Shown: positions 1-44,166 of the stretch, piece after piece
How positions within the stretch are numbered: the first letter of the stretch is position 1
Layout of the letters: each line of letters starts with the position of its first letter
Source of the DNA: a virus
Lineage: Duplodnaviria; Caudoviricetes
Strand: one strand, 5' to 3'
IMG/VR virus record: IMGVR_UViG_3300008954_000001
DNA: 64,000 nt
Notes under the pieces: model-generated
What the model was told of the DNA's origin: nothing
The model's input: the letters and a program-made list of their open reading frames with translations, nothing else
Databases searched by the model: none
Position numbers and translations under genes: made by a program

Positions 1-972
1 AAAGGAGAGTTGTGGACACATGCCGCATACACGGGGGGTCTAAAATCCACCCTTATGCTCAACTGGGCTTACAACCAAGCAGTGATCTACGGGGGTAGCT
101 CCTTGATCTTCTCCTTGGAGATGCCCTACGCCCAATGCCGTCGCATCCTGTACGCCATGCACAGCCTAAACCCTGCTTTACGAGACAAGCGTATCGAATT
201 GGGGATTGAAGCCAGCGATGGTCCTAACAGAGGTTTGAATTACGCCGACATCAAGCACGGCAAGCTGTCCCCAAACGGCAAGAAGTATTACTTCGATCAT
301 GTCACCCCACACTTCGCTGATGGCCCAACGGTCGCCCTACCAACCGGAGAACCTATTGGTCACGGAAAGATCAATATCGAAGTGGCCGATCCCGACAAAT
401 CGGATTTTACGGTAGCTGACCTACGCTCGAAAGCTGAACTGATCTACGCAGAGAACCCCTTTAGCGTGATCTTTGTAGACCACGCTGGCCTTATGGCCCC
501 TCGGTATCGGAACAGTTCGCAAACTGAACGGACCAATGAGGTCATGCGGGATCTCAAACGACTTGCGATGAGTTTCAACCGTGGACAAGGGATCGCTGTT
601 GTCGCCTTGTTTCAGATCAACCGCCAAGGTTTCAAGGAAGCCTGTAAGCGCAAAGAGAAGGGGTTGCCTCCTCTCTACACTCTTGCGGATCTTGCTTATG
701 CTAACGAAGCTGAAAAGTCCTCGGATGTTGTCACCGCTTCATTCATTGACGCAGAGCTTCGGAATCAAGGGCAAGTGCTCTTCCAATGTCTCAAAACAAG
801 AGACATGGAACCTTTCGACCCATTTTATTCGAGGGTAGAGTGGCCTTGTCGGAGAATCTTACATTGTGACGATATCCCCGACTTTGGTGTGGATGGTCGA
901 GAAAGGATTGCCCAACAAGCAGAAGCCCTTTCCGATCAACAAGCCCTCATCGATCAAATGTTAGACCTTTAA
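1..972 (+). CDS. dnaB: SF4 DnaB-like replicative helicase, C-terminal ATPase domain (5'-truncated by window edge)
   Basis: Frame is open from base 1 (KGELWTHAAYTGGLKST). Walker A-like AAYTGGLKST, H1a FSLEM, Walker B VIFVDHAGLM, H3 LFQINR, H4 DLAYANEAEKSSDVV and arginine finger KTRD occur in DnaB order. Confidence 0.85.
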   Translation, partial: KGELWTHAAYTGGLKSTLMLNWAYNQAVIYGGSSLIFSLEMPYAQCRRILYAMHSLNPALRDKRIELGIEASDGPNRGLNYADIKHGKLSPNGKKYYFDHVTPHFADGPTVALPTGEPIGHGKINIEVADPDKSDFTVADLRSKAELIYAENPFSVIFVDHAGLMAPRYRNSSQTERTNEVMRDLKRLAMSFNRGQGIAVVALFQINRQGFKEACKRKEKGLPPLYTLADLAYANEAEKSSDVVTASFIDAELRNQGQVLFQCLKTRDMEPFDPFYSRVEWPCRRILHCDDIPDFGVDGRERIAQQAEALSDQQALIDQMLDL

Positions 973-983
973 GGCGGTGACAC

Positions 984-1286
984 ATGGATAGCGTAGAAAT
1001 TGGAACGGCAAATAAGAACCCTACAGTAAACATTGAACAACTTACCGAAGAGTTCGACACCCTAACATTCCTTGAACCCCGTGCCGATTTCGACCCCTGC
1101 ATTATCGGAGTGGTTCAACGAAACAACCAAGAACCTTCTTTGTGTTACGCCTATGAAAAGGTCATCCACGCTTTGAAAAGCATGGGCGGGATATCTGATG
1201 AAGAAGCTGAAGAGCACTTCTCCTTCAACATCATCGGAGCCTATGTGGGTAAGACCACCCCCTGCTTTCTATTTTCGGGGCAATAA
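984..1286 (+). CDS. Conserved small phage hypothetical protein (100 aa)
   Basis: SD-like GGCGGTG upstream. Pattern FDPCIIGV...YEKVI...EEAEEHFSFNIIGAYVGKTTPCF resembles a small acidic family I recall as widespread in phage metagenomes. Confidence 0.7.
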   Translation: MDSVEIGTANKNPTVNIEQLTEEFDTLTFLEPRADFDPCIIGVVQRNNQEPSLCYAYEKVIHALKSMGGISDEEAEEHFSFNIIGAYVGKTTPCFLFSGQ

Positions 1287-1541
1287 ATGAGTAAGGCGGC
1301 TGAAACCTTTATCGACCAATTCACCCGCAAATTACTTGTCGATTGGGCGCACCATCAAATCACTGGTGGGGAAATAGGCAGTCCGCCCCCGTTAGAGGTG
1401 TGTGGCCCTCGCCAGTGCGCCTATGGCTACAAACCATACATCGAACACGCCATATCCAAAGGCTGGTTGTCGAAGGATGGGCAACGAGTTTTAGCAAGGG
1501 GTTTCTCTGTGGCTACTTCCGCTATCAAGCGAGGTAACTGA
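1287..1541 (+). CDS. Hypothetical protein (84 aa)
   Basis: Abuts the upstream stop (TAA-ATG) and overlaps the downstream start (TGATG), tiling the operon. Confidence 0.65.
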   Translation: MSKAAETFIDQFTRKLLVDWAHHQITGGEIGSPPPLEVCGPRQCAYGYKPYIEHAISKGWLSKDGQRVLARGFSVATSAIKRGN

Positions 1542-2122
1542 TGGGGAGAGCAAAAAAGAGGGCTGACCGAATTCGTGAAGAAGTGCCTCTGGATGCCGTT
1601 CTTGCTCGGTACGGCTACGATGTCATCGAGAAAAGCGACCGAGAGCAACAGTTCTCATGTGACCTTCATGGCGATGGATCAGACAATAAACCTTCGGCCC
1701 GATACTATCCCGACAGTTCGTCTTGGTATTGCTTCGCTTGCTCAAAGAGTCGGGATGCGATCTCGACAGTCATGTCTAAAGAAGGGAAGTCTTTCTCGGA
1801 AGCCTGTACCTCTTTAGAGAAAGACTACGGCCTCCCCGCCTTGCCTTGGGAAGAGGAAGATCGGCCACAACGGATCGACAGTGAGATCACTGTCTCCATG
1901 CCCCGCACCGCACAAGAGATCAGCGGGCACGTACTCAAAACCCTCAAAGCATTTTCAATCGGCAAAGATATTCCTCTCAATTCTCTCCTTCAATTGTGGG
2001 AAGCCCACGACAAGTTGGTTTTCCTTCATCAAGAAGGGCATTTGACGGAGGATCAAATCAAAGAAGGGATGGCTCGGATCGCTAAAACCGCCATGCGGGT
2101 AGCACGAGAGCAGACCCTATAA
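1541..2122 (+). CDS. Stand-alone primase zinc-binding domain (CHC2 type) protein, no TOPRIM domain
   Basis: CDLH-x~17-WYCFAC plus DAISTVM..EG.SF.EA..L matches the DnaG N-terminal CHC2 domain. The remainder is a short helical tail with no EG/DxD TOPRIM motifs. Confidence 0.8.
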   Translation: MGRAKKRADRIREEVPLDAVLARYGYDVIEKSDREQQFSCDLHGDGSDNKPSARYYPDSSSWYCFACSKSRDAISTVMSKEGKSFSEACTSLEKDYGLPALPWEEEDRPQRIDSEITVSMPRTAQEISGHVLKTLKAFSIGKDIPLNSLLQLWEAHDKLVFLHQEGHLTEDQIKEGMARIAKTAMRVAREQTL

Positions 2123-2131
2123 GGAGCAACA

Positions 2132-2176
2132 ATGAAGACAGTTACCCCACTTTCAGACAATAAATGCGGCAACTAA
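2132..2176 (+). CDS. Putative 14-aa leader mini-ORF (MKTVTPLSDNKCGN)
   Basis: Strong SD AAGGAG at 2121-2126, ATG at 2132, TAA at 2174-2176 directly abutting the ATG of array unit 1 in the same frame. Confidence 0.4.
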   Translation: MKTVTPLSDNKCGN

Positions 2177-2764
2177 ATGAAGGTTGTCCATCTGGCCCGA
2201 AAACCCTTCAAAGGGACCGTAGCCCTCAATGTCCTTACCCATGGGGCGGGAGGGTTGAATATCAACGCTTCTCGTATCCGAGACGGGTCTGAAACTAATG
2301 AGGCCCCCCCTGAGTACATCCCCAACTATGAAAACGAAGTGTTCGGTAGTGGGATGGGTGGTGGAGCTTGGGCAAATACAAGCGGGCGGTGGCCAGCCAA
2401 CCTGATCTTTCAGCATCTTGAAGGCTGTGTTTGCAAAGGAACTAAAAAGGTAAAAGGGATCGCTGGTGGCTCTCATTCAGGGGTTGAGCACACTCATGCG
2501 GTTGGGGCAAAGCTCAAACGGCACGGGATTACTCGCCATAACGATTCTGACGGAAACGAAACCGTAGCCAATTGGGTCTGTGTAGAGGGTTGTCCAATAC
2601 CTGTCTTAGACAACCAAAGTGGGATCGTGCCTACGGGATCGTGGAACCGACAAAAAGACGGGGCGCACCCTTTCGGAAATGCCGCTGGAAGCGAATACAA
2701 TAACTGGAAGGTTGTAGATGAGCCTGAAGGTGGGGCCTCTCGCTTCTTTAAGGCGGTGAAATGA
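2177..2764 (+). CDS. Array unit 1: methyltransferase-TRD-like module (195 aa), no catalytic motifs
   Basis: Conserved blocks LARKPF.GTVA.NVLTHGAGGLNI / GRWPANLIFQH / ETVANWVCVEGCP..LDNQSG / GGASRFFKAVK. Confidence 0.8.
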   Translation: MKVVHLARKPFKGTVALNVLTHGAGGLNINASRIRDGSETNEAPPEYIPNYENEVFGSGMGGGAWANTSGRWPANLIFQHLEGCVCKGTKKVKGIAGGSHSGVEHTHAVGAKLKRHGITRHNDSDGNETVANWVCVEGCPIPVLDNQSGIVPTGSWNRQKDGAHPFGNAAGSEYNNWKVVDEPEGGASRFFKAVK

Positions 2765-3435
2765 AAGTTATCACTCTTGCTCGCAAGCCTTTTAGTGGAA
2801 CGGTTGCTCACAATATGCTTACGCATGGGTGTGGTGGACTCAACATAAACAAGTGTCGAGTAGGGGCTTCGGAGAGCGACGATTACGGACGCAGCGTAAC
2901 GAATAGTGATGGCACCATAAACGCCCATGGGGGTTTCAGTGGGAAAGCCTTCAAAATCAATGAAAGAGATGAGGAATACGCCAGCAACTACGCCCATACT
3001 TCAGGTCGATGGCCCTCTAATCTGATCTTTCAACACTGTGAAGATTGTCGGTGTGAAGGAATCAAGAAAGTAAAAGGGATTGCCGGAGGCTCAGAGCGAG
3101 TCTCATCTCCCCGATGGCGGCCATGTCCCAACTTCCGGTCCCATTCAGGGGTGGCGCAAACACATGAGGTTGGCGCAAAGCTCAAACGCCACCGTATCGC
3201 TCGCCACAATGATCCCGAAGGCAACGAAACGGTTGCTGATTGGGTCTGTGTTGAGGATTGCCCCATCAAGACTTTAGACGAACAGAGCATCGCTGGCGGT
3301 ATGCACAGTGCGGGGTCTTCTCGAAAGGCTTCACGTTCTGCTGGAAAGACAGGCATGTTTCCGATGGACGGGGACGGTCACCGTTTCGGAGATACTGGGG
3401 GTGCCTCAAGGTTCTTCAAACAGGTGAAGCCGTGA
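2761..3435 (+). CDS. Array unit 2: methyltransferase-TRD-like module (224 aa)
   Basis: Same four blocks; ATGA overlap with unit 1. Confidence 0.8.
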   Translation: MKVITLARKPFSGTVAHNMLTHGCGGLNINKCRVGASESDDYGRSVTNSDGTINAHGGFSGKAFKINERDEEYASNYAHTSGRWPSNLIFQHCEDCRCEGIKKVKGIAGGSERVSSPRWRPCPNFRSHSGVAQTHEVGAKLKRHRIARHNDPEGNETVADWVCVEDCPIKTLDEQSIAGGMHSAGSSRKASRSAGKTGMFPMDGDGHRFGDTGGASRFFKQVKP

Positions 3436-4082
3436 AAGTTATTACTCTGGCTCGAAAGCCCCTTCAGGAAAGCACCATCACTTCCAATGTCCTGACACAC
3501 GGAGCGGGGGGCCTAAACATCGGTGCATGTCGGCTTTCTACTTCAGATAGCCTCAACGGTGGGGCTTACGCTGTGAACCCAACCCATCGGGCGGGTCAGG
3601 ATATGTGGACCCGTGATCGTAAAGGTGACACCAACTGTTTCAAACGGGGTGGGGCGGGCCATTACGAGCAACCTACGGGCCGCTGGCCAGCTAATCTGAT
3701 CTTTCAACACTTCGCTGAATGTAGATGCGAGGGGGTCAAGAAGGTAAAAAGCCACCCGCACTTAGGGCAAAAGAATCCAGAACTCACCAAGCAGTACAAA
3801 GGCGGTGTTTTCGGGGGCGGCGGGATAACCCCCGCTGGAGGTTATGCAGATGTTGATGGCAATGAAACTATAGCAAATTGGGTTTGTGCGGCTGGTTGTC
3901 CAATACCTGCTTTAGACAACCAAAGCGGTGTCTCGATTTCTTCGGGAGGTCGAATCGGCAACGCTCAAGGGATTTATACTAATCAAGGTCGAACAGGGTG
4001 GGGTACGGGCCATGAGGCTGGCGATCCCGGTTTCGGAGATGAGGGCGGGGCATCACGTTACTTCAAGGCAGTAAAGCCATGA
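3432..4082 (+). CDS. Array unit 3: methyltransferase-TRD-like module (216 aa, GTG start)
   Basis: Start re-assigned from the track's 3258 to GTG 3432 (GTGA overlap with the unit 2 stop), which gives the family N-terminus (M)KVITLARKP. Confidence 0.8.
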   Translation: MKVITLARKPLQESTITSNVLTHGAGGLNIGACRLSTSDSLNGGAYAVNPTHRAGQDMWTRDRKGDTNCFKRGGAGHYEQPTGRWPANLIFQHFAECRCEGVKKVKSHPHLGQKNPELTKQYKGGVFGGGGITPAGGYADVDGNETIANWVCAAGCPIPALDNQSGVSISSGGRIGNAQGIYTNQGRTGWGTGHEAGDPGFGDEGGASRYFKAVKP

Positions 4083-4723
4083 AGACGATTACTCTTGCTC
4101 GAAAACCGTTTGATGGGACCGTAGCCCACAACATGCTTACGCATGGGTGTGGGGGTTTGAATATCAATACTTGTCGGATCACCTTAGAACCCAACAGTCG
4201 GTTGACCAAAGGCGGCTCATACTCAGGAAACCGTACAGGGAGTAACGCTTCCTCTATGTTCAACGGAGGAAACGGGAAGGTGGAATACACCCCACCCCCC
4301 GGAAGATGGCCCGCTAACTTAATCCTCCAACACCTTGAAGGGTGTAGGCGGGATGGGGTTAAGAAAGTCAAACCTTCCAATGGGTCAGGAAGAGCGGGTG
4401 CGGGGGCATCTGGATTCCAAACTTCCTACGTGGGGGGAGATTCTAAGGCAACAGGATTTACGGGCGGTTCTGTGGAAGAGGATGGCAAAGAAACCGTAGC
4501 CAATTGGATCTGTGAAGACGGCTGTCCCGTAAAAGCCTTGGATGAGCAAAGCGGGGTTTCTAAGTCTTCGGGAGGGCGTACCGCTAATATCTCCACCACC
4601 TCTACTATTTATGGAGGGGGCAAAGGATTAGGGCAAGACTTGACCGCTGATTCAGTGCGTGGAGATCCGGGTTTCGGAGACACGGGTGGGGCTTCCCGCT
4701 TCTACAAGCAGGTGGTCCGATGA
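4079..4723 (+). CDS. Array unit 4: methyltransferase-TRD-like module (214 aa)
   Basis: Same four blocks; ATGA overlap. Confidence 0.8.
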   Translation: MKTITLARKPFDGTVAHNMLTHGCGGLNINTCRITLEPNSRLTKGGSYSGNRTGSNASSMFNGGNGKVEYTPPPGRWPANLILQHLEGCRRDGVKKVKPSNGSGRAGAGASGFQTSYVGGDSKATGFTGGSVEEDGKETVANWICEDGCPVKALDEQSGVSKSSGGRTANISTTSTIYGGGKGLGQDLTADSVRGDPGFGDTGGASRFYKQVVR

Positions 4724-5334
4724 AAGTAATCACACTGGCTCGGAAACCATTTGAAGGCACGGTCGCCAATAATGTTCTTACACGGGGTTGTGGTGGGATC
4801 AATATCGATGGTGCTCGCATCGCCGCCCCAAATGAAACGATTACGACCCACACGAAATCTAACGAAGCCGCCAAAGGTAAAGGCATCTTTGGAGCTTATG
4901 GTGGGTTCAAGACTCACCAGACTCCGGGTCAAAAGCTCGGACGGTTCCCCTCGAACACCATCTTTCAGCATCGCCCTGAATGTGTCTGTTTAGGCGCACA
5001 GAGGGTCGCTGGCCGAAGCTCTTGTAAAACCTCAAGTCTTGGGCAGGGGCGTAATGTCCCCGTCACCAGTGGTATCTACGGAGCCAAAAACAGCTTTATT
5101 GGTGTGGCCCATGTGGATGCCGATGGCACAGAAATCATCAATGCGTGGGAATGTGTAGATGGTTGTCCTGTGAAAGCGTTGGACGATCAAAGTGGTGTTC
5201 TCACCAGTGGGAAGATGGCCCAAGAGGTGAAGGGCAACCAGTTCAATGTCTACGGTAAAATGTACGACCGCTATGTCGAAACCCATGGGGATTCAGGTGG
5301 AGCCTCCCGCTTCTTTAAGCAGGTGAAACCATGA
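4720..5334 (+). CDS. Array unit 5: methyltransferase-TRD-like module (204 aa)
   Basis: Same four blocks (GRFPSN variant); ATGA overlap. Confidence 0.8.
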   Translation: MKVITLARKPFEGTVANNVLTRGCGGINIDGARIAAPNETITTHTKSNEAAKGKGIFGAYGGFKTHQTPGQKLGRFPSNTIFQHRPECVCLGAQRVAGRSSCKTSSLGQGRNVPVTSGIYGAKNSFIGVAHVDADGTEIINAWECVDGCPVKALDDQSGVLTSGKMAQEVKGNQFNVYGKMYDRYVETHGDSGGASRFFKQVKP

Positions 5335-5966
5335 AGGTGCTCACGTTGGCTCGCAAACCCTTCAAGGGGACCGTAGCCCACAATATGCTTACGCATGGTT
5401 GTGGTGGGATCAACATAAAGGCATCAAGAGTGGGTTCTGAACAGGTTTCGACCCACAGCCGTGGATCAAATCAAGCATTCCCCAAACGGCCAACTGAAAC
5501 CACTGTGGAGGAGTCGGGGCGTAAAGCCCGTCAAGACATATTGGATCACGCTCCCCGAACGGGAAGATGGCCCACCAACCTCATACTAAGTCATCTCGAC
5601 GGGTGTAGAATCGAAGGCACTCGCAAGGTCAAATGCAGCAATCCCACAAGGGCTGACGGGACCATCCGAACAGGTGACAATGAGATATACGGGAAAAGAG
5701 ACGACGTTCCCTTGTCGAACACCAACTACGCAGACGAGAGCGGTATGGAAGAGACTCCTAACTGGGTTTGTGTTGAAGGTTGCCCTGTAAAAGCCTTGGA
5801 CGAACAGAGTGGGGTTTCGCAAAGCCCGTCTACATACACCCGTTCCGTCGCCTCTGGCAATTTAATGGTGTGGGGGGAAGGAGTGGGAGATAAGGCTGGA
5901 GTGGAGTCTCTTAACTATGGTGACAGCGGAGGGGCTTCCCGTTTTTTCAAACAGGTGAAGCCGTGA
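5331..5966 (+). CDS. Array unit 6: methyltransferase-TRD-like module (211 aa)
   Basis: Same four blocks; ATGA overlap. Confidence 0.8.
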   Translation: MKVLTLARKPFKGTVAHNMLTHGCGGINIKASRVGSEQVSTHSRGSNQAFPKRPTETTVEESGRKARQDILDHAPRTGRWPTNLILSHLDGCRIEGTRKVKCSNPTRADGTIRTGDNEIYGKRDDVPLSNTNYADESGMEETPNWVCVEGCPVKALDEQSGVSQSPSTYTRSVASGNLMVWGEGVGDKAGVESLNYGDSGGASRFFKQVKP

Positions 5967-6400
5967 GGGGGTTGGTTAGGTATCAACTCAAAGACCCGAC
6001 ATGGGGGGAGTTCACAGTTTTTAGACCGATCCCAAAAGACGGGGATCTTTGGGGCTGTCTCACCTCCCTAAAAGGCACCGAATGGGAGAAAATGATCCCC
6101 GTTGTTTCGGGGGAAAACCTATCCCATGCCCTACACGGGTATATCGCCCCCCTGCTGAAAGAAATCGGGCCAGAGCCACGGTTGTTGGCGAAGCAGGTAG
6201 GCCAGAAACAAGGCCGCTGTGCGCTCTATAAAACCTGTGTGGCCGCCGAACCCAGTTGCCTTCCCGCTGGACCCCCACCTGATTGTTATGAAGCCCCTAT
6301 GGAAGATTATGGAGCTTCTTTTGCCGCCACAACCGTTGTTTTGTGCTGGAAAACAGGGGGTTGGGTGGTTGTCGTGGGGGAGGGTGAATTTTCGATTTGA
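5963..6400 (+). CDS. Hypothetical Cys/Pro-rich protein (145 aa, GTG start)
   Basis: GTGA overlap with unit 6. CALYKTC...CLP...PDCY cluster suggests metal binding. Confidence 0.65.
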   Translation: MRGLVRYQLKDPTWGEFTVFRPIPKDGDLWGCLTSLKGTEWEKMIPVVSGENLSHALHGYIAPLLKEIGPEPRLLAKQVGQKQGRCALYKTCVAAEPSCLPAGPPPDCYEAPMEDYGASFAATTVVLCWKTGGWVVVVGEGEFSI

Positions 6401-6461
6401 GGGGGCCGTTTGCCTTCCATTTCAGTACAATTTGTAGAGAAAGCGAGGAGTAGAAGTAAAA

Positions 6462-9161
6462 ATGTCCTTTTTCGAGCAGTTATATGACTCTGTAAGGCCA
6501 GAAATTGAGCAACATCCGTGGATGACACAATGCACAATGACTCTGGTAACCACTGAAGCACAGCTAAAGGCGTGTGTGGATCAGTGTATTGCGGCGGGGT
6601 TGTACGCCTTGGATTTGGAGACCACGGGGCTGGATAGCCGAGTTTTTGACGGGGAAACCCGTGCGAAGATCGTAGGTTTTTGTCTCTCTCCTGATGAAAA
6701 TACGGGGTTTTATATCCCTGTACGACACCACAAGGGGGTCAATATCCCTTGGACGGTAGCCCACCGTGAGATGTCCCGATTGGGGGCTTCTGATGCCGTC
6801 GCCATTTTCCACAACGCTAAGTTTGACCAAGAGTTTTTGGAGTTCACTGGACTCGGATCGATTGGTGATTGGGATGACCCAAAGCGGTGGCACGATACGT
6901 TAATCATGGCGTATATCCGAAACCAGAAGGCCCGCCAAAAGGGGCTGAAGTTTCTGAGTAAGTCAGAGCTTGATTGTGAAATGATTGAGTTGCCTGACCT
7001 ATTTGGACCTGCCCATAAAGGCGACTTGGACTTTTCCTTGCTCGATTCGGCATGGGAACCCTGTCTTTGGTATGCCGCAGCCGACGCTATTTGCACCTTT
7101 AGGCTATTCAAGCACCTTGCTAAAGAGCTTGAAAGGCCGATTGAGGGCATTGCCCCCCTTTCGGGCATCTACACCATCGAAAAACTGGCTTTGACTGCGA
7201 CACGGTGGATGGAGCGGTGCCGCATCCAAATCGACCAAAGCAAAGCAAAGGAACTGATTCGTATCGGCCAAAAAGAGTGGTGGGAGTCTGTTTCCGATGT
7301 GTACAACTCAGCCCAAGACACTTTGGGGCGGGATGTGCGTCCTGCATGGGTCAAGTTGTTAGCTGGCGACCTTAAAAGTGGCCTGTCTTTTGACCCCGAC
7401 GAAGTAAGCCCTTCTTATATGGATCGGGTAAAGGAAGCTCGAAGCCATGCGAGGCGTATGAAGATGGATGCCGATGGTGTTGTCACAAAAGAAGTGACCT
7501 CATTGACATCAGATAAGAGCGAATCGGTGAACTTCCCTTTAGTGTACGACATTCTATCGGGGGATCAGCTTGGTAAGCTCTTTCGTGAACTGAAGGTTCC
7601 AGGGCTTCGGGCTACCGAAAAGTCAGGCCAAGTGAAGACCAGCAAAGATGAATTGGATCGAGTTGTTGAAGAGGCTGGCGAACGGTTCCCCTATATGGCG
7701 AAGATCAAGCGGTTCCGAGAGGTATCGAAGGCTCTATCGACCTATTTGATTTCCATGGTCGAGGACGCTGCTCCAGATGGATCGCTGAAAGCTAATTTCA
7801 ATGGTTTGCGTACAGACACGGGTCGCTTTTCGGCCCCTGTATCCAAACGCCCTAAAGTAGATGGTGGTTGTCGTGTGCCTTGGCAGGGGATGCCTTCGGG
7901 CTACGACCCCAACCGCCCCGAATGTTTGAAACGCTTGCGTGAATGTATTGTTGGGCGAGGCAATCGAGTTTTGATTGCCATCGACTACGCAGGGGTTGAG
8001 CTTCGTATCGCAACGAATCTTTCACTCGAACCCAAGTGGGCGAACGAGTATTTCCGTTGCGCCGATTGTGAGAAGAAGTTCGATAAAGGGGATGGAAAAG
8101 TCACCCCCTCTGCACCACCCCCGTTCTGTCCGAAATGTGGTTCAGATAAGATTGGGGATCTCCATAGCTTGACCACCATTATGTTGTATGGCGATGCCAT
8201 CAGGAAAGACAAGAAGGCATTCAAAGCCAAGCGACAGATTGGGAAGCAAACCAACTTCCTACTCTGTTACGGCGGTGGGCCTAATGCCCTTGTGCAACAG
8301 ATTGGTTTGGATCGGAGTGAGGCCGAACGGGTCAAGAGCACCTTCGACAAGCAATACCCCGCCTTGCGGAATTGGTGGGACCGCCAACACCGTTTTGGTC
8401 GCAAGTATGCGTTTGTATGCACGGCGTTCGGTCGTCGCTGTCCTGTACCTGACATCAACATGCCGAGATACGACAAGAAAACGGGTCGGCGTAACGGTTC
8501 TTTCATTTCCAAAGCTGAACGAAATGCGGTGAACGCTCCAGTACAAGGGACGTCTGCCGATATAACTAAGATGGCTATGGGCCTAATCTACCGCCACGCC
8601 AAAAAGAACGGCTGGTTGGATCGTATGGGAATGGTAATCACGATGCACGACGAACTTGTTTTCGATGTAGAGCCTTCGTTGGTGAAGGAATTCCTCGATG
8701 TCGTGCCTCGGATCATGTCCTCTAATAAGATGGTTCGTAGCCGAAAGTGGCCTATCCCCCTTACCGTAGACATTGAGATGGGTAAGGATTGGACGGTCCC
8801 TTACAATATTACCGAAATCCAAGAAACGAAAAAGGTTCCCGATGGGTTGAGGGATCTTCTTGGTGATTATGTGGATGACCTTATTGCGGACACCCCCACA
8901 GTTGAGGCACCTACCGATGCCCCACCTAAAACGAACGGGAAGTTCCAATATGAAATTAGTGGTCCACTTACAGTTCAGTTAGCGATCCGATTGGCGAAAG
9001 CCATTGAAGCTGCCCGTTCCCCTACGGGGAAGATTCTGAGTTTAGGAGGACCACACGGGGCAGTAGTAGCTAAACGTGCCTTTCAAGGCCGTCCCCCCCG
9101 TATTAATACGGAGGTTTTTATGAGTCTCGTTGGAGATTCAAAAGGAGAATATGATGAGTAG
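6462..9161 (+). CDS. polA: Family A DNA polymerase with 3'-5' exonuclease, no 5'-3' exonuclease, zinc-ribbon insertion
   Basis: ExoI LDLETTG, ExoII HNAKFD, ExoIII YAAADA; TDTGRFS; motif A IDYAGVELR; motif B RQIGKQTNFLLCYG (Phe at the E. coli 762-equivalent position); NAPVQGTSADITK; motif C MHDELVF. SD GAGGAG upstream. Confidence 0.95.
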   Translation: MSFFEQLYDSVRPEIEQHPWMTQCTMTLVTTEAQLKACVDQCIAAGLYALDLETTGLDSRVFDGETRAKIVGFCLSPDENTGFYIPVRHHKGVNIPWTVAHREMSRLGASDAVAIFHNAKFDQEFLEFTGLGSIGDWDDPKRWHDTLIMAYIRNQKARQKGLKFLSKSELDCEMIELPDLFGPAHKGDLDFSLLDSAWEPCLWYAAADAICTFRLFKHLAKELERPIEGIAPLSGIYTIEKLALTATRWMERCRIQIDQSKAKELIRIGQKEWWESVSDVYNSAQDTLGRDVRPAWVKLLAGDLKSGLSFDPDEVSPSYMDRVKEARSHARRMKMDADGVVTKEVTSLTSDKSESVNFPLVYDILSGDQLGKLFRELKVPGLRATEKSGQVKTSKDELDRVVEEAGERFPYMAKIKRFREVSKALSTYLISMVEDAAPDGSLKANFNGLRTDTGRFSAPVSKRPKVDGGCRVPWQGMPSGYDPNRPECLKRLRECIVGRGNRVLIAIDYAGVELRIATNLSLEPKWANEYFRCADCEKKFDKGDGKVTPSAPPPFCPKCGSDKIGDLHSLTTIMLYGDAIRKDKKAFKAKRQIGKQTNFLLCYGGGPNALVQQIGLDRSEAERVKSTFDKQYPALRNWWDRQHRFGRKYAFVCTAFGRRCPVPDINMPRYDKKTGRRNGSFISKAERNAVNAPVQGTSADITKMAMGLIYRHAKKNGWLDRMGMVITMHDELVFDVEPSLVKEFLDVVPRIMSSNKMVRSRKWPIPLTVDIEMGKDWTVPYNITEIQETKKVPDGLRDLLGDYVDDLIADTPTVEAPTDAPPKTNGKFQYEISGPLTVQLAIRLAKAIEAARSPTGKILSLGGPHGAVVAKRAFQGRPPRINTEVFMSLVGDSKGEYDE

Positions 9162-9486
9162 TACAGAAAACAATCCAGAAAACATTGAGGAAATCCTCAA
9201 ACTATGGGCACCGACCGTGATCAACATGGTTGAGCGGCAAGCTCGTACAGACTTTCTGCTAACTCTGCTCGAAGAACACGGGTTCTTTCCAAAAGGCTTC
9301 AATGAACTGGGAGATATTATCTTGGATAAGCTCCGCACACATGGCGATATTGAAGCAGTCCGAGAGGAAGCCCTGAAAACAAAGGTAATCCCTTGGGATT
9401 ATGCTCAAAAAGTCGGAAGGCTTAAAACTAAGATGCACAAGACCGATGCGGGTATCGCCAGCATCGCCCGACGACTCCTTCTATAA
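9151..9486 (+). CDS. Hypothetical protein (~111 aa)
   Basis: AAGGAG at 9142-9147 favours ATG 9151 or 9154 over the track's TTG 9130. Overlaps the polA stop. Confidence 0.65.
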   Translation: MMSSTENNPENIEEILKLWAPTVINMVERQARTDFLLTLLEEHGFFPKGFNELGDIILDKLRTHGDIEAVREEALKTKVIPWDYAQKVGRLKTKMHKTDAGIASIARRLLL

Positions 9487-9530
9487 AACCTCCTTGGTAG
9501 GCATGGGTATTATGAACCCAAGGAGTTTCG

Positions 9531-10286
9531 ATGAAGAAGGACTTGTTCAATGAGTGCTTTGATGAACGCTTGCCCCCGGCTGCGTTCAAACAAGTCTTTT
9601 GCGGCCATTGTCGGAACCCAACCTGCTCTTTAGCAGGTTGGGCCGCTGACCAATTTGGTGCTCGAAACGCTATCCAAGAAGAGCGTCTCTACAACCCAAA
9701 TGTCGCCCACCCTGACGACCCTCGATATGGTCGCCTAAAAGAACAGGACTTCCCTTCTCTCTTCCATAAAGCAGTCCGTTTAGAAATAGCGGATCGTAGA
9801 GGGGATTGGAGCCTTCCTGAGTCTAATGTGGTTCTGGCTCCAATTGATCCCGAACCAGCCTCTTCAGAATCACAAGACTTAGTGAAGGAAGCTGTTCTTT
9901 CCCTAAAGAGGGAAAACAACCCTGAAACGATTTCTGATGAGGTTATAGATCGGGGTTCCTCGGATACGCCTGAGAGCGAACTCCGGGATCAAGAGGATCA
10001 AGATCAGGTCACCCCCCCTGAAATTCCCCCCGAACAGCCAGAGCAAAATCTGGCATCGAAAACAGAAAAAACCGAAAAAAGTTTGGAGGCTTCTGCGAAA
10101 GCCTCCGTTGAACGCCACCAACACCCGAATCAAAAAAATACGGATTTTGAAGAAGGTTTGATGTTGGAGGGGGCTTCGGAATTTCCTTCTGACGAAAAAA
10201 CTAAGCAGCAACGAGTTCAGGACTCTTGGAAGCCCTCCAAAGTGATCGAACCTGGCTCCACCGTGAATATGGGAAAAAAGAAATGA
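9531..10286 (+). CDS. Hypothetical protein, N-terminal Cys cluster (CGHC..PTC) and acidic low-complexity C-terminus
   Basis: SD AGGAG at 9521-9525; ATGA overlap with the next gene. Confidence 0.7.
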   Translation: MKKDLFNECFDERLPPAAFKQVFCGHCRNPTCSLAGWAADQFGARNAIQEERLYNPNVAHPDDPRYGRLKEQDFPSLFHKAVRLEIADRRGDWSLPESNVVLAPIDPEPASSESQDLVKEAVLSLKRENNPETISDEVIDRGSSDTPESELRDQEDQDQVTPPEIPPEQPEQNLASKTEKTEKSLEASAKASVERHQHPNQKNTDFEEGLMLEGASEFPSDEKTKQQRVQDSWKPSKVIEPGSTVNMGKKK

Positions 10287-13735: not shown

Positions 13736-14314
13736 TTAGGCATCCGCACCAGCGAATGTGAGTTGAACCGTCGCCCGTTGAATGGCGGCGGCGGAAACAA
13801 GAGTGATAGTAAGAACTTCGTCGGCGGCTACATCAGCGGCTTCGTCGGCCAGCGTCAAGTCTGACAGGCCGTCGAGGGCTGCGACATCGGCGGCCACATT
13901 TCCATCCAACACTCCACCAGCCGAGGCACCTTCGACGTTGATGGTTGCGGGATCGTTAAGTGCGCCAGAAGAGATGATTTTCACGCTTACGATTTTGCCG
14001 AGAGCGGCGGCTACTTGAGCCGTTCCGTGGGCTACGACAACTGCGATAGTCTCGCCAGCCGAATCGCCTCGCAAGAACTCTGCCGTAAGCGTACCTGCGT
14101 CAATCATTCCTCGAAGGCATCCGCTTTCAAAGCTGCGAGCAACATCGCCTGAATAAGCAACATCCACTGAACCGCCACCCGGAACATAAAGAGCACCGGA
14201 TCGAGTCAACCCGTGTTGGGGACCGTCCGTTGCATCGTAACAATCGTCAAGCAAAACGGAGGGAGTGGTACTCGCCGCTGCGTTGCTGACTCTGATAAAT
14301 AATCCTTCAGCCAT
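13736..14314 (-). CDS. Small acidic Ala/Gly-rich protein, paralog A (possible virion/decoration protein)
   Basis: SD AGGAG; paralog of 13154-13711; preceded by the recurrent promoter-like motif. Confidence 0.6.
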   Translation of the reverse strand: MAEGLFIRVSNAAASTTPSVLLDDCYDATDGPQHGLTRSGALYVPGGGSVDVAYSGDVARSFESGCLRGMIDAGTLTAEFLRGDSAGETIAVVVAHGTAQVAAALGKIVSVKIISSGALNDPATINVEGASAGGVLDGNVAADVAALDGLSDLTLADEAADVAADEVLTITLVSAAAIQRATVQLTFAGADA

Positions 14315-14390
14315 TTTTCCTATCTCCTAATCGAGAGGTTCAGTTTCAATTTACCCCCGACAGGAGGTGCCTCATTCTACTTGTGGGGAC

Positions 14391-14407
14391 TATAAAGGCT
14401 CTAACGG
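14391..14407 (-). promoter_or_regulatory. Candidate late promoter CCGTT-N7-TTATA
   Basis: Intergenic, 77 nt upstream of 14314; matches the motif found in other structural-gene gaps. Confidence 0.45.
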
Positions 14408-14466
14408 GAGCAAAGGACATAAATCCCCTCCAATCTTCCACCCTTCTACAAATATAGAGGGGGTAT

Positions 14467-15492
14467 CTAAACGAAAACGCCATTGAATTGCTGAGTGCAT
14501 CGCACGAAAGTCGTGCATTTGCTCAACTGTTTGAGCGTGGGGGCACCTACATAGGTACAGGTAGAACGGACTCCGCCGAGAATGTTTTTTATAGTGTCAT
14601 CTACGGACCCTCGAAAAGGAACCTCAACGAGCCGCCCCTCTGAGGATCGGTAGTCAGCTATCCCTCCATGGTGTTTGTCCATGGCGGCATCTGAACTCAT
14701 ACCGTAGAACTGAACATTGGATTCACCGTTCTTCTCAACCACGGTGCCGCCCCCTTCTGTGTGGCCAGCAAACATGCCACCGAGCATGACGAAATCAGCC
14801 CCCGCAGCGAAGGCTTTGGCTACATCTCCTGGGCAGGTACACCCGCCATCGGCAATAACGTGGCCCCCAAGCCCGTGAGCGGCATCCGCACACTCGATCA
14901 CGGCACTAAGCTGTGGATACCCCACCCCCGTCTGAATACGGGTTGTACAGACCGATCCTGGGCCAATACCGACCTTTACGATGTCGGCCCCGCTCATAAT
15001 CAGTTCTTGGGTCATGTCGGCTGTTACGACATTTCCAGCAATAATAGTGACATGGGGACATTTCTCTCGAACCTGTCGCACGAAATCAACGAAATGTTCG
15101 GAATACCCGTTCGCAATATCGATACAGACAAACCGAAGGCATTGTCGGGTAAGGAGCTTTTCAGTCTTTTCCCAGTCAGCCCTTCCTGTTCCTGTACTGA
15201 TGGCGATCCTGTCGGGATCAACCATCTCCGCATAAAGATCCCAATCCCGATGACCGTAATGCTTCGCTATACAGGTGAACAGGCCCCGTTCCGCTAAGGC
15301 GTGGTGCATGTTGAATGTACCCACCCCATCCATATTGGCGGCCATGATCGGGATACCGCTCCATGATTTCTGGCTGTGCTTAAATGTGTAGGTCCGAAAT
15401 AGATCCACCTCTTTTCGAGAGCGAAGAGTGCTCCGCTTAGGGCGGATCAGGACATCTTTGTAGTCGAGCTTGAGGTCGCTTTCGATTCGCAT
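14467..15492 (-). CDS. guaC: GMP reductase (type 1, E. coli GuaC-like), auxiliary metabolic gene
   Basis: [23 protein letters not shown]..., [30 protein letters not shown] (catalytic Cys loop), [40 protein letters not shown]. Start set at MRIES (15492) by analogy with E. coli MRIEEDLKL. Confidence 0.95.
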
Positions 15493-16213: not shown

Positions 16214-16471
16214 TTAGTCTCCTTTTCGAGTCTTATTCGTTCCAATTGCCCAAGGTGTAGCATCCTCAGGGATTGCACCCGGTAATACTACCCTTCCCTC
16301 AAGGGCATAATCCTTTCCGCCCGCAATTTCATCTAACCGCTTTTTTACGGCGGCTCGTTGCTGTTCGGAAAGAGCAGGGTTCAATAAGGCTCGCCTCAAT
16401 GACTTGCGCCACCTTTCTACGTGGGGAGACTTCTTTTTTGGGGAGATTTCTTTTGAGCTAATTCGGTGCAT
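16214..16471 (-). CDS. Small basic hypothetical protein (85 aa)
   Basis: TAATG overlap with the 1902-aa gene stop; ends 2 nt before the next start. Confidence 0.55.
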   Translation of the reverse strand: MHRISSKEISPKKKSPHVERWRKSLRRALLNPALSEQQRAAVKKRLDEIAGGKDYALEGRVVLPGAIPEDATPWAIGTNKTRKGD

Positions 16472-19400
16472 TATTCGTCCTCTCCCGGATAAGCGAGTGG
16501 GGGCATATGCGGGTCAGGTAGATCCCGTCTACGAGCTTTGTGCATCGGACGACCGTCAATACGGTATCGATCTGCTGCCGCATACCCTTCACCGAACCCT
16601 GTGGGGGAAATCTCCCCGCTCAAAGTAATTCCCTCTTGTAAGGTCTTGCCGTTACTGAGGACTCCATAAGTAACAATGAGGAGTTGGATCTCATCTCCGT
16701 CAGAACGCTTTTTCCCCACATGGGCGTTGGAAAAGGCATGTTCGTAGAAGTTCCTGACCAATATGGCCTTACATGCGAGGGCACCGCCCTTCATCATGGG
16801 ATCAAGAGATTTTGGCATCGAATCAGCTACCCAATCGATTGGGCCTCCTGGCTGATCCCCCGATAAGTTGAATACCGCCCCGCCGCCTCGATGGAGACGG
16901 AACTTCTTAACACCCGTATCCTCTGTGAAACCTTGGTAAGGGGCGTATTTGTTGATTGCCCCATCACTCATTGCGATTAACTCACCCGGCGCACCGAAAA
17001 ATCGTGTGTACTCTTGTCCGTTTGCTGCCAAAGGCAAAACATTCTGAACAGGGCGGATCGCTGATGTGCTGGTACGGAAAGCCGTAGCATTGTCTCCCAG
17101 CGGGTTTTCGCAAATGAAATCGGAGTCTTGAAGTAGGATTCCCAACGGCAATCGCTCGGTCATACCCGTCAGTCGAAGTTGGCTTTCTCCCAACCCTGCA
17201 TTGACAGGAATATCCATACCGCCAGCGAAGTTCGCCGCCGTAATGTGCTTAGGGTACTGCGTATTGTCGGTCGGAACTCGAATCGAAATGATTTGGTGCG
17301 CCATCGGAGAGTCTACATCGTGTACCCAATCAGGCCCAAACCCAACCTCAACACGCATTTGATTACCGATAGCTCCCGACTGTAGGGCTTCCAAAGTAAG
17401 GACATGCGAACCGTCCCAAGAACGGTTCCTTCCTCGACCACTGGTATCTAATGCCGATTGAAGTTCGGGATGGTGGCTAATCAGCATCCAAATGCTTTCC
17501 AAGGTGTTGTTCCAATTCTGGAACTCCGTACCCGTAGAATGCACTTTGAATTCGTTTGGACCCCATGGGCCAGCTTCCCAGTCAGCCTTTCCTGTAAAGG
17601 TAACTCGGCCCCCGTCCAAACGAGTAATCGTAATTTGGAAATCATGGAGAGCGGCCAACTGTTCAGGACTAATCCCAAAACGAAGCTCCGCTTGCGCCCG
17701 TGAAGGGTTCGTAATCTGCCCTTCCGTGTAGGCCCGTGATTGTACGTGCCACCGCCGAAAATGAACCGTCGCTTGATCTTCCGTGGGAACACGGATTGAA
17801 GAACCCGATGTTGGCTCAACTACGCCCACATCAAGTGCGGTGCCAGGGTATAACTTCCCTGCGATCTTGCCCGTTCCCATTGTCGTATAGAAATCCAAGC
17901 TGGCAAGGACTTCAAACCCACGAGGGTTCGGACGCTGAACCAGCAGGTTTCCATCTTCATCGAACTGTTTGATCGATTTAGATAGTTGATGGGTCTTTAG
18001 GAGACTTAGGCTTCCATACCGCTGTTGGTAATCATGCCTGTCAATAGAGTCTCCCGAATGGGTCATAAAAGGATCACCTTGATAGGGTGTCCGTGAGTAT
18101 GCGTTGTAGCCCGCATCGTTCTTGTTGGGGGCCGCTGGAACAACCATTTCCACATCAGCAAACTCGGCCTCTCCGAGAGACGCAAGGTCTTGGGGAACGC
18201 CTGAGTGTTTACGAGCAAGCACATAGTTATTCTTGTTGATAAACCCACGAGCAAAGCCGAACACCACACATTCAACAACATAGTCGAAATCATCAAAAGA
18301 ATGGCCGTCCCAATTCTCTGACAAGGTATGGTCAATGGCCTCACTTGGAATAATGTAGGTGTGGTCGTCTTCGTTGCCTGTGATACTCCCACCGTAAGTA
18401 CAAGTTGTCTCATCGTACTCGTACCCACCACCCTGTCGGATAAAGAGAGTCTGCTTGTCGGCATCTGTCTTTAGCAGGTTGGTTGGGGGGTTCTTAATCG
18501 GATTGATCCGAGCCAAATCCCCCGTAGCGTCAAACCCACCAGGAACATCGTCCTGTTGGTGCGCCTCGAATTCTTGTCGTTCGTAAACACCATACAAGCG
18601 AGCGATCCCGTAGTTCGGAGGAAGTTCAATACCTCGCATCCCGTAGCCGAGATCCGAAGAAATCACTTCGGGGAGGTAAACTTTCCTCGCCCCAATCGTC
18701 GGAGAAGCCGTCTGAGCGATCTGATTGCGAACACCATAAATGGTGTCTGTCTGAAACAATATCGGGGTTACTTGCTCATCTGTTGTAGAACCCTCGTTGT
18801 CCTCTCCGCCGATAATTGCGAATACATCTTCCGTCTCATTGGTGGAGTCCACGAAGAGATGGTTGATCCCAGACATGAAGGGGTCGTTGTCACCCACTCG
18901 CACATGGTACGGAATGTCCTGCCGCCCAAACTTCGGCATAACCTCTGGCGGAAGGGCAAAGCCCAACACCATGTTGGAGGTCCAAATATGTGCGGGATCT
19001 CGCAAGCTGTCTTTTGACAGCCCATGTGAATAAGTCTTTTCACCAATCAAAGAAGGGTCGGCTTCAGTTTCGTGTGTCCGAAGCGTCATTGTACGCCGTT
19101 GGAAAGGCCGCCAAATAACTGTCTTTGATCCGTGATCTACGAAAAGCTCGCACTCACGGTCCTGCTCAGACCGAAGAACAACTCGGCCACCATAATGAGG
19201 GGCCTCTGGAGCATTCCAACCCAAAGCAGGCAAATGGTTCCAAAGCTGAACGTGTGTCGGGCGATAATGCCGTTCTGTTTCAGGGAAAGAGGTGGCTCCG
19301 TTCCACTCAACATCAATTTCATTGATGTCGTTCCGAAGATAACTGGTCCCACCGTCCACAACCGCTACCCGCTCAATCTGATCGGGAACCCGTGTTGAAC

Positions 19401-23076: not shown

Positions 23077-23528
23077 TTTGACCCCCCCGTAGCGTATCGA
23101 TAGGCCACCTCTCTGGCGAAATTATCGACATTTTCTCGATACAGGGAAATGGCCCCATCTCGTTCTTGGGCAACGAGCTTTTCAATCGCCCTTGGGTCAT
23201 TACTAAAGGCTCGACCTCTTCCAGAGGTGGCGACTTTTGTATCTGCGGTCCATTTGATCTCGCCTTCGGGGTCTACAAAGCCGAGAACGGTGTAAGAAAT
23301 CGCCCCTTCTTCGTAAGGCTCCTGAAAGCTCACTGAACAAAATCCAGACCCAACTCGGATGTGGGGCTTGCTGCGGTATTTACGCCCAAAATGCTTACCC
23401 CAATACTCACACTCAATCTTGAGAGCATTAACCGGGGCGGCCAACTTCCAACGAGAGGCTACTTTCCGAGCTTGATGTCTTTTCAATATTTTCGGGATCA
23501 TTTTAGCCTTCCTCATCTCCAAGGACAT
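23073..23528 (-). CDS. Hypothetical basic protein (151 aa) with two A[RK][KE]VA.R[WY] motifs
   Basis: Overlaps the giant gene's 3' end by 26 nt; ATGA overlap downstream. Confidence 0.6.
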   Translation of the reverse strand: MSLEMRKAKMIPKILKRHQARKVASRWKLAAPVNALKIECEYWGKHFGRKYRSKPHIRVGSGFCSVSFQEPYEEGAISYTVLGFVDPEGEIKWTADTKVATSGRGRAFSNDPRAIEKLVAQERDGAISLYRENVDNFAREVAYRYATGGSK

Positions 23529-36540: not shown

Positions 36541-36573
36541 CAATCAATCTCCATGCTTCTGTGAAAGGCGGGG

Positions 36574-39996: not shown

Positions 39997-39997
39997 C

Positions 39998-43429: not shown

Positions 43430-43443
43430 TCTCTGCCCCTACC

Positions 43444-44091
43444 TCAGAAGGTCAATCGCCACGTTATGGTCAAGATGGCCGTTGAAGGCTTCGAGATCAC
43501 AGGGAAGGTCAGATAGTTGACTAAAATATCCTTTTCCGTGAGGTCCACCGTTGGGTCATAATGAGGCCAATCAGCGTTTACGGGGTTTTTGATGGATGGG
43601 TCACTGGAAAACGGGGATATTAGCCCCATCTCGTTCAGTGGCCCTACCGCCTCCGCCTCTCCATAAGAAGTCGTAAAATCGACTACATTGGTTGGTACGG
43701 CACTCACACCGCCTTCCGTGTCCCTGTAAATCACGGAAGCAAACTGCTTTCGCCCGAAATCTAACTCTGAATTTAACTTACGCTGGTTGATGTGTGGGGC
43801 ATCGGGGTTCAACAAAGACCCTCTCGCACCTGATCCCACAGTCAACATATGAAGGCCACGAGCAACGCCGCCGAAGTTTTGAAACAACATGGCGGCAAGT
43901 ACGCCACCATCCTTTGTGATTACATTGTCACGTTCCCAAGAAACAAGGATCTCGCCCGTGAGAGCGTCCTTCATCTCCAAGATGAAGGTTCCCTTCCCGA
44001 TTGGAAAGTGGTCGGCGTGTTTTACGCTGGCTCCCAGTTTCATAGCTTGCCTCATCCGTTTCACATTTTCCCGATGTAGGGCCGAACTCAT
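43444..44091 (-). CDS. Tail-collar/baseplate-like structural protein (~215 aa)
   Basis: NVIT..GG...L.VG.G...P..QRKL.SE...RK...TNVVDFTT....EA.GPLNEMGL...F..I.K......ITW.L.F resembles the phage tail-collar fibre (DUF3751-like) pattern; SD AAGGAG. Confidence 0.5.
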   Translation of the reverse strand: MSSALHRENVKRMRQAMKLGASVKHADHFPIGKGTFILEMKDALTGEILVSWERDNVITKDGGVLAAMLFQNFGGVARGLHMLTVGSGARGSLLNPDAPHINQRKLNSELDFGRKQFASVIYRDTEGGVSAVPTNVVDFTTSYGEAEAVGPLNEMGLISPFSSDPSIKNPVNADWPHYDPTVDLTEKDILVNYLTFPVISKPSTAILTITWRLTF

Positions 44092-44129
44092 TTGTCTAAC
44101 TCCTTCGGGGTCTCTCTCTCCGTGTATTC

Positions 44130-44146
44130 AATAGGTCGATTACCGA
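44130..44146 (-). promoter_or_regulatory. Candidate late promoter TCGGT-N7-CTATT (preceded by CCGTTCTA)
   Basis: Intergenic, 39 nt upstream of 44091. Confidence 0.55.
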
Positions 44147-44166
44147 TAGAACGGCCTGTTGTTGAA

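Follow-up and report, generated by a model that had tools for sequence, protein, structure and literature searches.

Six tandem genes of a huge phage are probably old, loop-reassorted paralogues and predicted methyltransferase recognition subunits

Multispecific C5 methyltransferases of temperate Bacillus phages (M.SPRI, M.Phi3TI and M.Rho11sI) were reportedly described by Trautner et al. in 1996 and Walter et al. in 1992 (both cited in PMC7544214), and they are among the systems with which we compare six tandem genes (units U1 to U6; positions 2177-5966, plus strand) in a 64,000-nucleotide (nt) stretch of phage DNA from the IMG/VR record IMGVR_UViG_3300008954_000001; the whole of this stretch is called the window below. 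As in the Bacillus-phage enzymes, several alternative recognition modules appear to stand side by side, to be interchangeable and to vary between related phages, and the presumed purpose is protection from several restriction systems. Unlike those enzymes, in which modules of ~40 amino acids (aa) lie in one polypeptide, the units are separate, translationally coupled genes of the beta-class amino-methyltransferase lineage; each is ~200 aa long, contains three variable loops and probably has a metal site of the HxxxC/CxxxC type. In Type I systems, HsdS is a separate specificity subunit, the target-recognition domains (TRDs) of which reassort through conserved regions. Both fused and split forms of the M and S parts of Type I systems exist (PMC3510504, PMC6158711). 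The units resemble HsdS in being separate specificity polypeptides that are predicted to dock via conserved regions, in recombination within the conserved regions, and in the overlapping, coupled genes. They differ from it in that there is no sequence relation (no match of the six units to Pfam Methylase_S, PF01420), in that three loops lie in one small domain instead of two TRDs with coiled coils, in that the predicted partner is a CcrM-like beta-class core in two pieces instead of the gamma-class HsdM, and in that no inversion or phase-variation machinery is present.

Heterodimeric beta-class enzymes with one eroded subunit are also known, namely METTL3-METTL14 and the ciliate MTA1-MTA9, which has two DNA-binding subunits (PMC7544214). 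The likeness lies in related phages, where a C-type piece of the methyltransferase (see below) has motif I but an eroded motif IV, an N-type piece has DPPY, and recognition appears to reside on another polypeptide; the differences are that the N-type piece lacks the half that binds S-adenosylmethionine (AdoMet) and that the recognition polypeptide seems to derive from the enzyme's own insert. Finally, the units are homologous to the LARKP..GRWPAN..SRFFY segment of 'HindIIIM' of Klebsiella phage LASTA and of mycobacteriophage DNA methylases, which, unlike the units, are complete enzymes with DPPY and FxGxG. The unit array thus belongs to none of the multispecific C5, HsdS and METTL3-METTL14-type systems. 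No description of split or stand-alone beta-class recognition modules in phages was found in the literature, which is no proof of novelty, many subscription papers having been outside our reach.

The six units are, in our view, likely to be old paralogues within a very large, unnamed module family, with loops that were reassorted in ancient times and with a predicted role as recognition subunits. None of them had a match in Pfam or NCBIfam, and all six matched phrog_3008 ('DNA methyltransferase') over its N-terminal third only; U1, for example (unit hidden Markov model (HMM) positions 1-210), matched it with E=5.8e-8 and matched no Pfam methyltransferase. With tblastn, the units matched the middle portion of many phage DNA methylases. 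The unit HMM covers residues 206-402 of the 515-aa methyltransferase L002 from LR745208.1, where the segment stands after DPPA...WMFRKP and before SRFFYCAKAS...HPTVK...FLGSGTT; it matched the equivalent segment in 21 fused enzymes, and in the fused homologue L083 the sequences that flank the unit on either side both align to CcrM (6PBD). In beta-class enzymes the order of motifs is IV-VIII, TRD, X, I-III (PMC7544214), and the unit is assigned to the TRD position because its location in L002 and L083 fits this order. At the level of these alignments, the units are shown to be homologous to the insert at the TRD position of CcrM-like beta-class N6/N4 methyltransferases (PF01555), which by the same alignments lies between the HE..ARKP strand and the SRFFY..K/HPTxKP region. 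Catalytic motif IV, (D/S)PP(Y/F/W), is absent from the six translations, with no PF01555 match at E<=0.1; AdoMet motif I (FxGxG) after HPTxKP is absent as well, and the profile of the C-terminal half had no match to the units. A unit alone is therefore not a methyltransferase.

The family is large: the profile search retrieved 17,211 cluster representatives (50% identity) at E<=0.001 and 3,452 at E<=1e-30, which span stand-alone proteins of ~200 aa and chains of two to five units. Among 120 listed homologues of stand-alone length, 101 were unnamed, 16 were called 'hypothetical protein' and one was named a methyltransferase; the profile of the six units had no match to PDB sequences at E<=1. 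Genome annotation does not recognize the family at present (no Pfam or NCBIfam match), and a member is readily taken for a pseudogene or for a piece of a methyltransferase. Beta-class methyltransferases in which one chain contains two to five unit-like modules in tandem were also seen (L048 5326-8307, L019 4669-7371, L082/L084, P0122-P0124), with 994 aa and four modules, or 899-1164 aa and three or four modules; these chains are the amino-methyltransferase counterparts of the multispecific C5 enzymes.

The region consists of six tandem open reading frames (ORFs) on the plus strand, of 195-224 aa each: U1 (2177..2764, 195 aa), U2 (2761..3435, 224 aa), U3 (3432..4082, 216 aa, GTG start), U4 (4079..4723, 214 aa), U5 (4720..5334, 204 aa) and U6 (5331..5966, 211 aa). 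Each unit overlaps the next by 4 nt (ATGA or GTGA), so that the frame steps by -1 at each junction; the units are therefore separate ORFs in three alternating frames and not several modules in one catalytic polypeptide. Every unit starts with an ATG or GTG of its own, which overlaps the stop codon before it. By eye, purine-rich strings resembling Shine-Dalgarno sequences were seen within the final codons of each unit, ahead of the start of the following gene (GGCGG ahead of U2, AAGGCAG ahead of U4, and AGGTG ahead of U3, U5, U6 and the ORF downstream of the array). From this arrangement we infer that the units are translated separately. The protein identity to U1 is 43-59%. Four conserved blocks (B1, MKVITLARKP..GGLNI..R; B2, GRWPAN..H...C; B3, W.C...CP..LD.QSG; B4, GGASRFFKQ) alternate with three hypervariable, unalignable loops (V1, V2 and V3). 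All six units have H80, C84, C135 and C139 (U1 numbering; HxxxC...CxxxC; in U1 at 2414-2428 and 2579-2593 on the plus strand, and at the corresponding places of the other units), and across 76 units these residues are conserved to at least 90%. They probably form a metal site that holds the V2 loop together at its base. U4 and U6 have lost the second cysteine of the CxC pair. Pseudogene remnants were ruled out by six intact ORFs, the conserved motifs and a dN/dS of 0.08 (ratio of nonsynonymous to synonymous substitutions) in the V2-V3 region shared between U4 and unit L105_924. For a fusion of units by read-through or frameshift, no slippery site of the X XXY YYZ type was seen by eye at the junctions, and fused multi-unit relatives exist as plain single ORFs. 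Tandem Repeats Finder reported nothing in positions 1-10000, because the units are too diverged.

The evidence for loop reassortment came mainly from comparison across phages. A scan of IMG/VR with the unit alignment gave 77 loci, and an HMM census gave 78 unique full-length units; two loops were counted as one type when their similarity was at least 0.40, the maximum for shuffled sequences being 0.30. By this definition, 133 unit pairs share a loop type, and 124 of the 133 share one loop only, eight share two and one shares all three; the sole shared loop was V1 in 38 pairs, V2 in 40 and V3 in 46. For almost all loops of U1-U6, the most similar loop was found in a different phage and not in a sister unit. 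Thus V3 of U1 matches L009_5947 (similarity, 0.73), V3 of U2 matches L012_7192, a unit of another phage (0.93), and V3 of U3 matches L026_3582 and L024_2649 (0.87); V1 of U3 is of the type found in L016, L024 and L020, with a match to L016_5980 (0.54), the V3 of which is unrelated to U3. V3 of U4 matches L012_5923 (0.88) and L028_5977 (0.77; V2 of the latter also 0.67), the V1 type of U5 occurs in L043 and L010 and its V3 type in L010 and L027, and the V3 type of U6 occurs in L105_277 (0.54). The sharpest case was reached via the closest homologue of U4, in an ENA contig (L105) that has its own array of at least six units: L105_924 is similar to U4 in V2 (0.90) and V3 (0.96), the two being orthologous there, and is unrelated to it in B1 and V1. 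The aa identity of this pair is 23/74 (31%) on the 5' side of GRWPAN and 120/140 (86%) on the 3' side (Fisher p=1e-15), and the shared V2-V3 region has dN 0.069 and dS 0.885, against a dN of 0.44 in B1. In the same manner, the unit of L063 has a V1 found in L105_2221 and a V2 found in L105_277.

The conserved framework behaves otherwise. Similarity in B1 is 0.78 within genomes versus 0.53 between them (p<=0.0005; this holds also without the window units), whereas the similarity of V1-V3 within genomes is at the noise level (0.11-0.13), and a loop had its nearest neighbour within its own genome in 0/43 cases for V1, 2/43 for V2 (U1 and U2) and 0/43 for V3. These comparisons show that the three loops were reassorted independently of one another, like cassettes, on frames specific to each genome, the breakpoints lying in the conserved blocks; the exchange was between units and, mostly, between different phages.

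Within the array, one exchange is statistically visible, namely the V2 common to U1 and U2. The patch extends from the end of B2 through V2 to the first half of B3 (alignment columns 106-181; 2432..2587 in U1 and 3052..3255 in U2, plus strand; repeat family D8, 80% over 128 nt), and U1 and U2 have 79.5% nt identity in it versus 63.6% in the other conserved blocks (Fisher p=0.0009; for third positions, p=0.03). The patch has dN 0.089 and dS 1.2, and dS is saturated outside it. Since the two units are more alike in a variable loop than in their conserved blocks, they cannot have a single divergence time. The maximum likelihood (ML) tree of the patch contains (U1,U2), and that of the remaining conserved blocks is ((U1,U3),U5,(U2,U4,U6)), with ultrafast bootstrap (UFboot) values of 94 for U1+U3 and ~50 for U2+U4+U6. 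In approximately unbiased (AU) tests, the patch data rejected (U1,U3) (p=0.0097) and (U2,U4,U6) (p=0.013), and the framework data rejected (U1,U2) (p=0.0095), (U3,U4) (p=0.046) and the adjacent-pairs tree (p=0.003). A triplet permutation of the 3SEQ type gave many p values at the permutation floor but was discounted as evidence of recombination, because saturated unalignable loops beside an alignable patch can give clustering without recombination, so that the test cannot tell an absence of signal from a conflict of signals; the pairwise homoplasy index (PHI) on all ungapped columns (p<=0.0005) was set aside with the same caveat.

The first-pass annotation of this region had argued for recombinational shuffling of three variable segments from a patchwork of short identical strings with conflicting pairings. 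Its conclusion agrees with ours, and most of the evidence that it cited turned out to be weak; the exchange, moreover, took place over evolutionary time and mainly between phages, which is not the scale that its wording suggests. The five DNA strings that it quoted do occur once in each of the named units and nowhere else in the window: cacaaYatgcttacgcatgg, coding for HNMLTHG, at 2809-2828 (U2), 4127-4146 (U4) and 5379-5398 (U6), and, by string search, the U1/U6 string at 2201 and 5355, the U1/U4 string at 2558 and 4490, the U1/U3 tract at 2588..2619 and 3894..3925 (30/32 nt identical) and the U4/U6 string at 4529 and 5787, all on the plus strand. The common V2 of U1/U2 and the common V3 of U3/U4 that it had pointed out are also real, with 81% nt identity versus ~35% for all other pairs and 57% versus ~35% for other pairs, respectively. 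When columns of the four conserved blocks (297 columns, 187 polymorphic) were permuted in the manner of GENECONV, however, the strings were not individually significant (global p=0.086 for U1/U4 and 0.39 for U1/U3, U2/U4, U2/U6 and U4/U6, the U1/U3 tract taken alone), and the best tract was U2/U3 (p=0.04). A striking patchwork of short identical strings can thus be statistically weak even where the inference drawn from it is right for other reasons.

These figures bear on a simpler explanation, according to which the units are plain tandem duplicates that have never recombined and the patchwork reflects uneven constraint and chance identity. It would agree with the insignificance of the strings (global p 0.09-0.39), with the star-like support for splits in the conserved blocks (at most 5-7 informative sites per split) and with the marginal PHI result there (p=0.09 with a 60-nt window; p=0.017 with a 30-nt window). 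We nevertheless regard it as very unlikely, because the trees of separate segments reject each other reciprocally in the AU tests, so that the single congruent duplication tree which the first-pass annotation had named as refuting its view does not hold, because U1 and U2 are more alike in the loop than in the conserved blocks, and because the loops assort independently across the 78 units, with the sharp breakpoint of U4/L105_924; moreover, the near-equal counts of sole shared loops (38/40/46) mean that no single loop is simply slow-evolving.

The alternation along the array that the first-pass annotation had described is present, HNMLTHGCGG standing in U2, U4 and U6 and NVLT in U1, U3 and U5, but it does not exceed chance expectation, since six units can be divided into two groups of three in ten ways, of which perfect alternation is one (p=0.1). 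Its support in B1 comes to five informative sites, and several other splits have four. It could be a trace of how the array arose, namely from a block of two genes that was triplicated and had its loops replaced later, which would add to the reading preferred here and not compete with it. The ML framework tree contains the 135|246 split, a tree of adjacent pairs is rejected (p=0.003), and U1+U3 have a UFboot value of 94; on the other side, U2+U4+U6 have support of only ~50%, U5 joins the even units and not U1+U3, perfect alternation has a prior chance of 0.1, the protein feature is confined to three residues of one motif, and no related array with the same order was found. We consider such a triplication rather doubtful, although less so than the alternatives treated in the other paragraphs.

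The reassortment within and between these arrays appears to be old. The dS values are saturated for nearly all unit pairs, and even the best tract (U1/U2) has dS 1.2; exact matches between units are at most 21 nt long, and the repeat families in the array are only 60-80% identical. Assembled contigs of Logan, from four runs of one study, included long pieces identical to the array, with no indels and no joints, so that the recombinant junctions or copy variants which the first-pass annotation had proposed to seek were not seen there, metagenome contigs being such that rare variants are hidden; two short low-depth contigs of one run had a few substitutions (four in U1 and 14 in the ORF downstream of the array). 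From the saturated dS, the repeats of at most 21 nt and the lack of variants in the four metagenomes we conclude that the shuffling is ancient. The exchanges between phages are likewise old, because the third-position identity of orthologous loops in different phages is only ~40-60%. At present the array is stable, its six units each having a different combination of loops, and the swapping took place over a long time; recent or programmed gene conversion within the array is not supported, no pointer to it having been found.

One recent event of another kind seems to have affected a loop. Relative to U1, V2 of U2 contains an in-frame insertion of 48 nt (3092..3139, plus strand; 16 codons), and removal of this word restores ggc tcc cat (GGSH, as in U1). 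The 48-mer is unique within the 152-kb record, and it was not found as an exact match in IMG/VR or JGI contigs. In three metagenome runs it formed a contig of its own at ~2x depth, with contig breaks and loose ends, and it continued into other contigs of 7.5-14.7 kb with phage-like depth and different flanks. In this second context it stands after an ATG in another frame and reads MSKKKAK-QSESHLPDGGHVPTSG-FNYGLDGFDF. The 48-mer looks like a recent templated patch copied between the loop and another gene, which probably belongs to the same phage.

One alternative is that the array serves as a shufflon or a store of cassettes, and that site-specific recombination, frequent gene conversion or a retroelement is still reassorting the loops within phage populations. 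This would be in keeping with the tandem layout, with the conserved blocks flanking variable ones and with the 48-nt word, which, being identical elsewhere in the same metagenomes, points to at least one recent templated event in a loop. The shortness of the exact matches between units, the divergence of the repeats and the saturation of dS all speak against it. No inverted repeats were found in 2100-6100, the library scans matched no recombinase family in the neighbouring ORFs, no reverse transcriptase (RVT_1) was matched in the 152-kb record (~36% complete), and no near-identical repeat of any V segment, as would be expected of the template of a diversity-generating retroelement, was found. 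The contigs of the four runs have neither joints nor indels, though such contigs hide rare variants, and the start codon in every unit means that the units are not silent cassettes. Active diversification is therefore, of all the alternatives, the one to which we give the least credence, and we hold it to be extremely improbable.

For the function of the anciently reassorted units, the related phages were informative. There, the enzyme is often split into overlapping ORFs, namely an N-type piece, one or more units and a C-type piece. The N-type piece has ~190 aa, keeps DPPY and ends in its own E.I..G.KK strand. The C-type piece has 230-290 aa, keeps HPTVKP and DPFxGSGTT and has no recognition insert, and its motif IV is eroded (TPPV, SPE or TPGDP, where the normal small relative L021 8788-9576 has SPPY); such eroded C-types with full Rossmann folds are L030 6651-7361, L017 7863-8678, L105 3497-4381 and 13 others (alignment A4). 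For 37/44 (84%) of the loci with stand-alone units, an N-type ORF, a C-type ORF or a unit-C fusion lies within 6 kb; the order in L105 is at least six tandem units, then the C-type gene and then three N-type genes, and in larger related contigs units can sit 36-90 kb from the catalytic pieces. A complex model of the N-type piece, unit and C-type piece of L030, which supports binding, had a score of 0.89, the best of three controls having 0.37; this mark is reached by 58/80 solved complexes and by 2/110 mismatched pairs. The runs agreed in at least 63% of contacts, and the partner pLDDT (predicted local distance difference test) was at least 55. In this model the interface on the unit comprises 1-31 (B1), 71-79 (RWPANFILT), 152-162 (CP..LD) and 205-215 (B4), with no interface residue in V1-V3, and such predicted docking through the conserved blocks would fit both the genome-specific framework and the free exchange of loops.

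We therefore propose, by way of a model, that each unit would dock through its conserved blocks onto a split methyltransferase core without a recognition insert of its own, the core being composed of the N-type DPPY piece and the C-type AdoMet-binding piece with the eroded motif IV; that each unit would direct methylation to a different sequence; and that the outcome would be multispecific self-protection of the phage against restriction. On the sequence comparisons and the predicted complex, the chances are slightly in favour of the six units being alternative recognition subunits for a split core that would be encoded in the missing 64% of the genome. The wider notion of a plug-in specificity system of huge phages, in which a split CcrM-like core accepts subunits of ~200 aa, three independently exchangeable loops set the target in combination and one core would yield six methylation specificities here, is a tentative one, to which we give somewhat less than an even chance. 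If the units are trans-acting recognition subunits, phages would have arrived at multispecific methylation against restriction a second time, independently of the tandem-TRD C5 enzymes, and the units would form a natural library from which a recognition code of beta-class adenine/cytosine-N4 methyltransferases could be learnt; a plug-in system of this kind would resemble Type I HsdS in function while stemming from the insert of the enzyme itself.

A different possibility is that the units act without a methyltransferase core, for example as sequence-specific DNA-binding proteins that mask restriction sites, control replication genes or serve as decoys. The record does contain no catalytic piece in 152 kb, the array lies inside a replication module, and seven related loci are also devoid of a catalytic piece within 6 kb. 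Set against this are the N- or C-pieces near 84% of the loci with stand-alone units, the coincidence of the predicted contacts to these pieces with the conserved blocks, and the distances of 36-90 kb between units and core in relatives, in view of which absence from a 36% fragment says little. We judge action without a core to be unlikely, although less so than the absence of recombination.

Several points weigh against the units being old, loop-reassorted recognition subunits. No N-type piece, no C-type piece and no PF01555 match was found in the 152.5-kb record (~36% complete; searched with PF01555 and profiles A3 and A4). A weak match of the C-half profile at record coordinates 13850-14623 (minus strand) was rejected, since it resembles the motif I region of generic methyltransferases that use S-adenosylmethionine and has no PF01555 match. 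Structure prediction for a unit on its own was poor: the AlphaFold2 model of U4 (76-row alignment) has a mean pLDDT of 64.5, and with it Foldseek found nothing in PDB at E<=0.001 and VIA-align 2 (pdb_via_wide) nothing at Z>=2, a lack of matches that is uninformative on the fold because the model is so weak. The complex model concerns L030, a relative, and not the array of the window, and the fold of which its chains are pieces has been solved in single-chain form, a likeness that may account for the pass. Common descent within arrays with later replacement of loops fits the genome-specific framework as well as co-adaptation to a partner does. As for the statistics of recombination, the partition boundaries in the AU and Fisher tests were chosen post hoc, after a sliding-window plot; ~16 constraints were tested, so that p~0.01 fails strict correction and the rejection of the adjacent-pairs tree (p=0.003) alone survives; and most pairs cannot be aligned in V2 and V3, so that these columns bring noise into the trees.

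Among the N-type genes, seven on five contigs (L105, L011, L019, L041 and L043) have a stop codon directly after DPPYG, and 36 N-type homologues are intact in frame. The interrupted genes of L105 are at 4384-4488/4503-5183, ~5190-5300/5300-6097 and 6094-6198/6480-7154. They resume (..GLEFMGK[DE]WD..) 5-8 codons on at a conserved ATG, in the -1 frame, or in the same frame in L011. Judging from this layout, either a 34-aa peptide may carry the catalytic motif alone, or the position may be a recoding site.

The IMG/VR virus record to which the window belongs has 152.5 kb and an estimated completeness of 36%, and the source virus is a huge phage, because 152.5 kb is estimated to be only 36% of its genome. 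The nearest relative in GenBank is LR745208.1 (uncultured phage, 485 kb; PolA identity, 53%), and marine metagenome runs contain DNA of the window. Upstream of the array is the gene for a primase zinc-finger protein of the replication module (1541..2122, plus strand; PF01807, E=3.5e-8, and synteny). Downstream is a conserved ORF of 145 aa (5963..6400, plus strand), which belongs to the same module and lies between primase and PolA in relatives; it had no family match in the library scans and has no relation to methyltransferases. PolA (6462-9161, 899 aa) lies beyond it. The module of helicase, primase, this 145-aa ORF and PolA is kept in 19 related contigs, in which there is, at or near the position of the array, nothing, one unit, a split N/unit/C set or fused methyltransferases; because the relatives differ in content at this position, the replication module is a variable site for unit and methyltransferase genes. 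The six-unit array is the largest found at this position, and no close relative with the same array or the same unit order was found. In some related phages, the PolA homologues have 1763 aa (L096 2623-7911, L098 4831-10119, L099 11158-16446) and are possibly interrupted by inteins or other inserts. Much of the remaining window is occupied by very large ORFs (1902, 4346, 1134, 1143 and 1673 aa) in the stretches 16471-22179, 23503-36543 and 36592-49188 on the minus strand.

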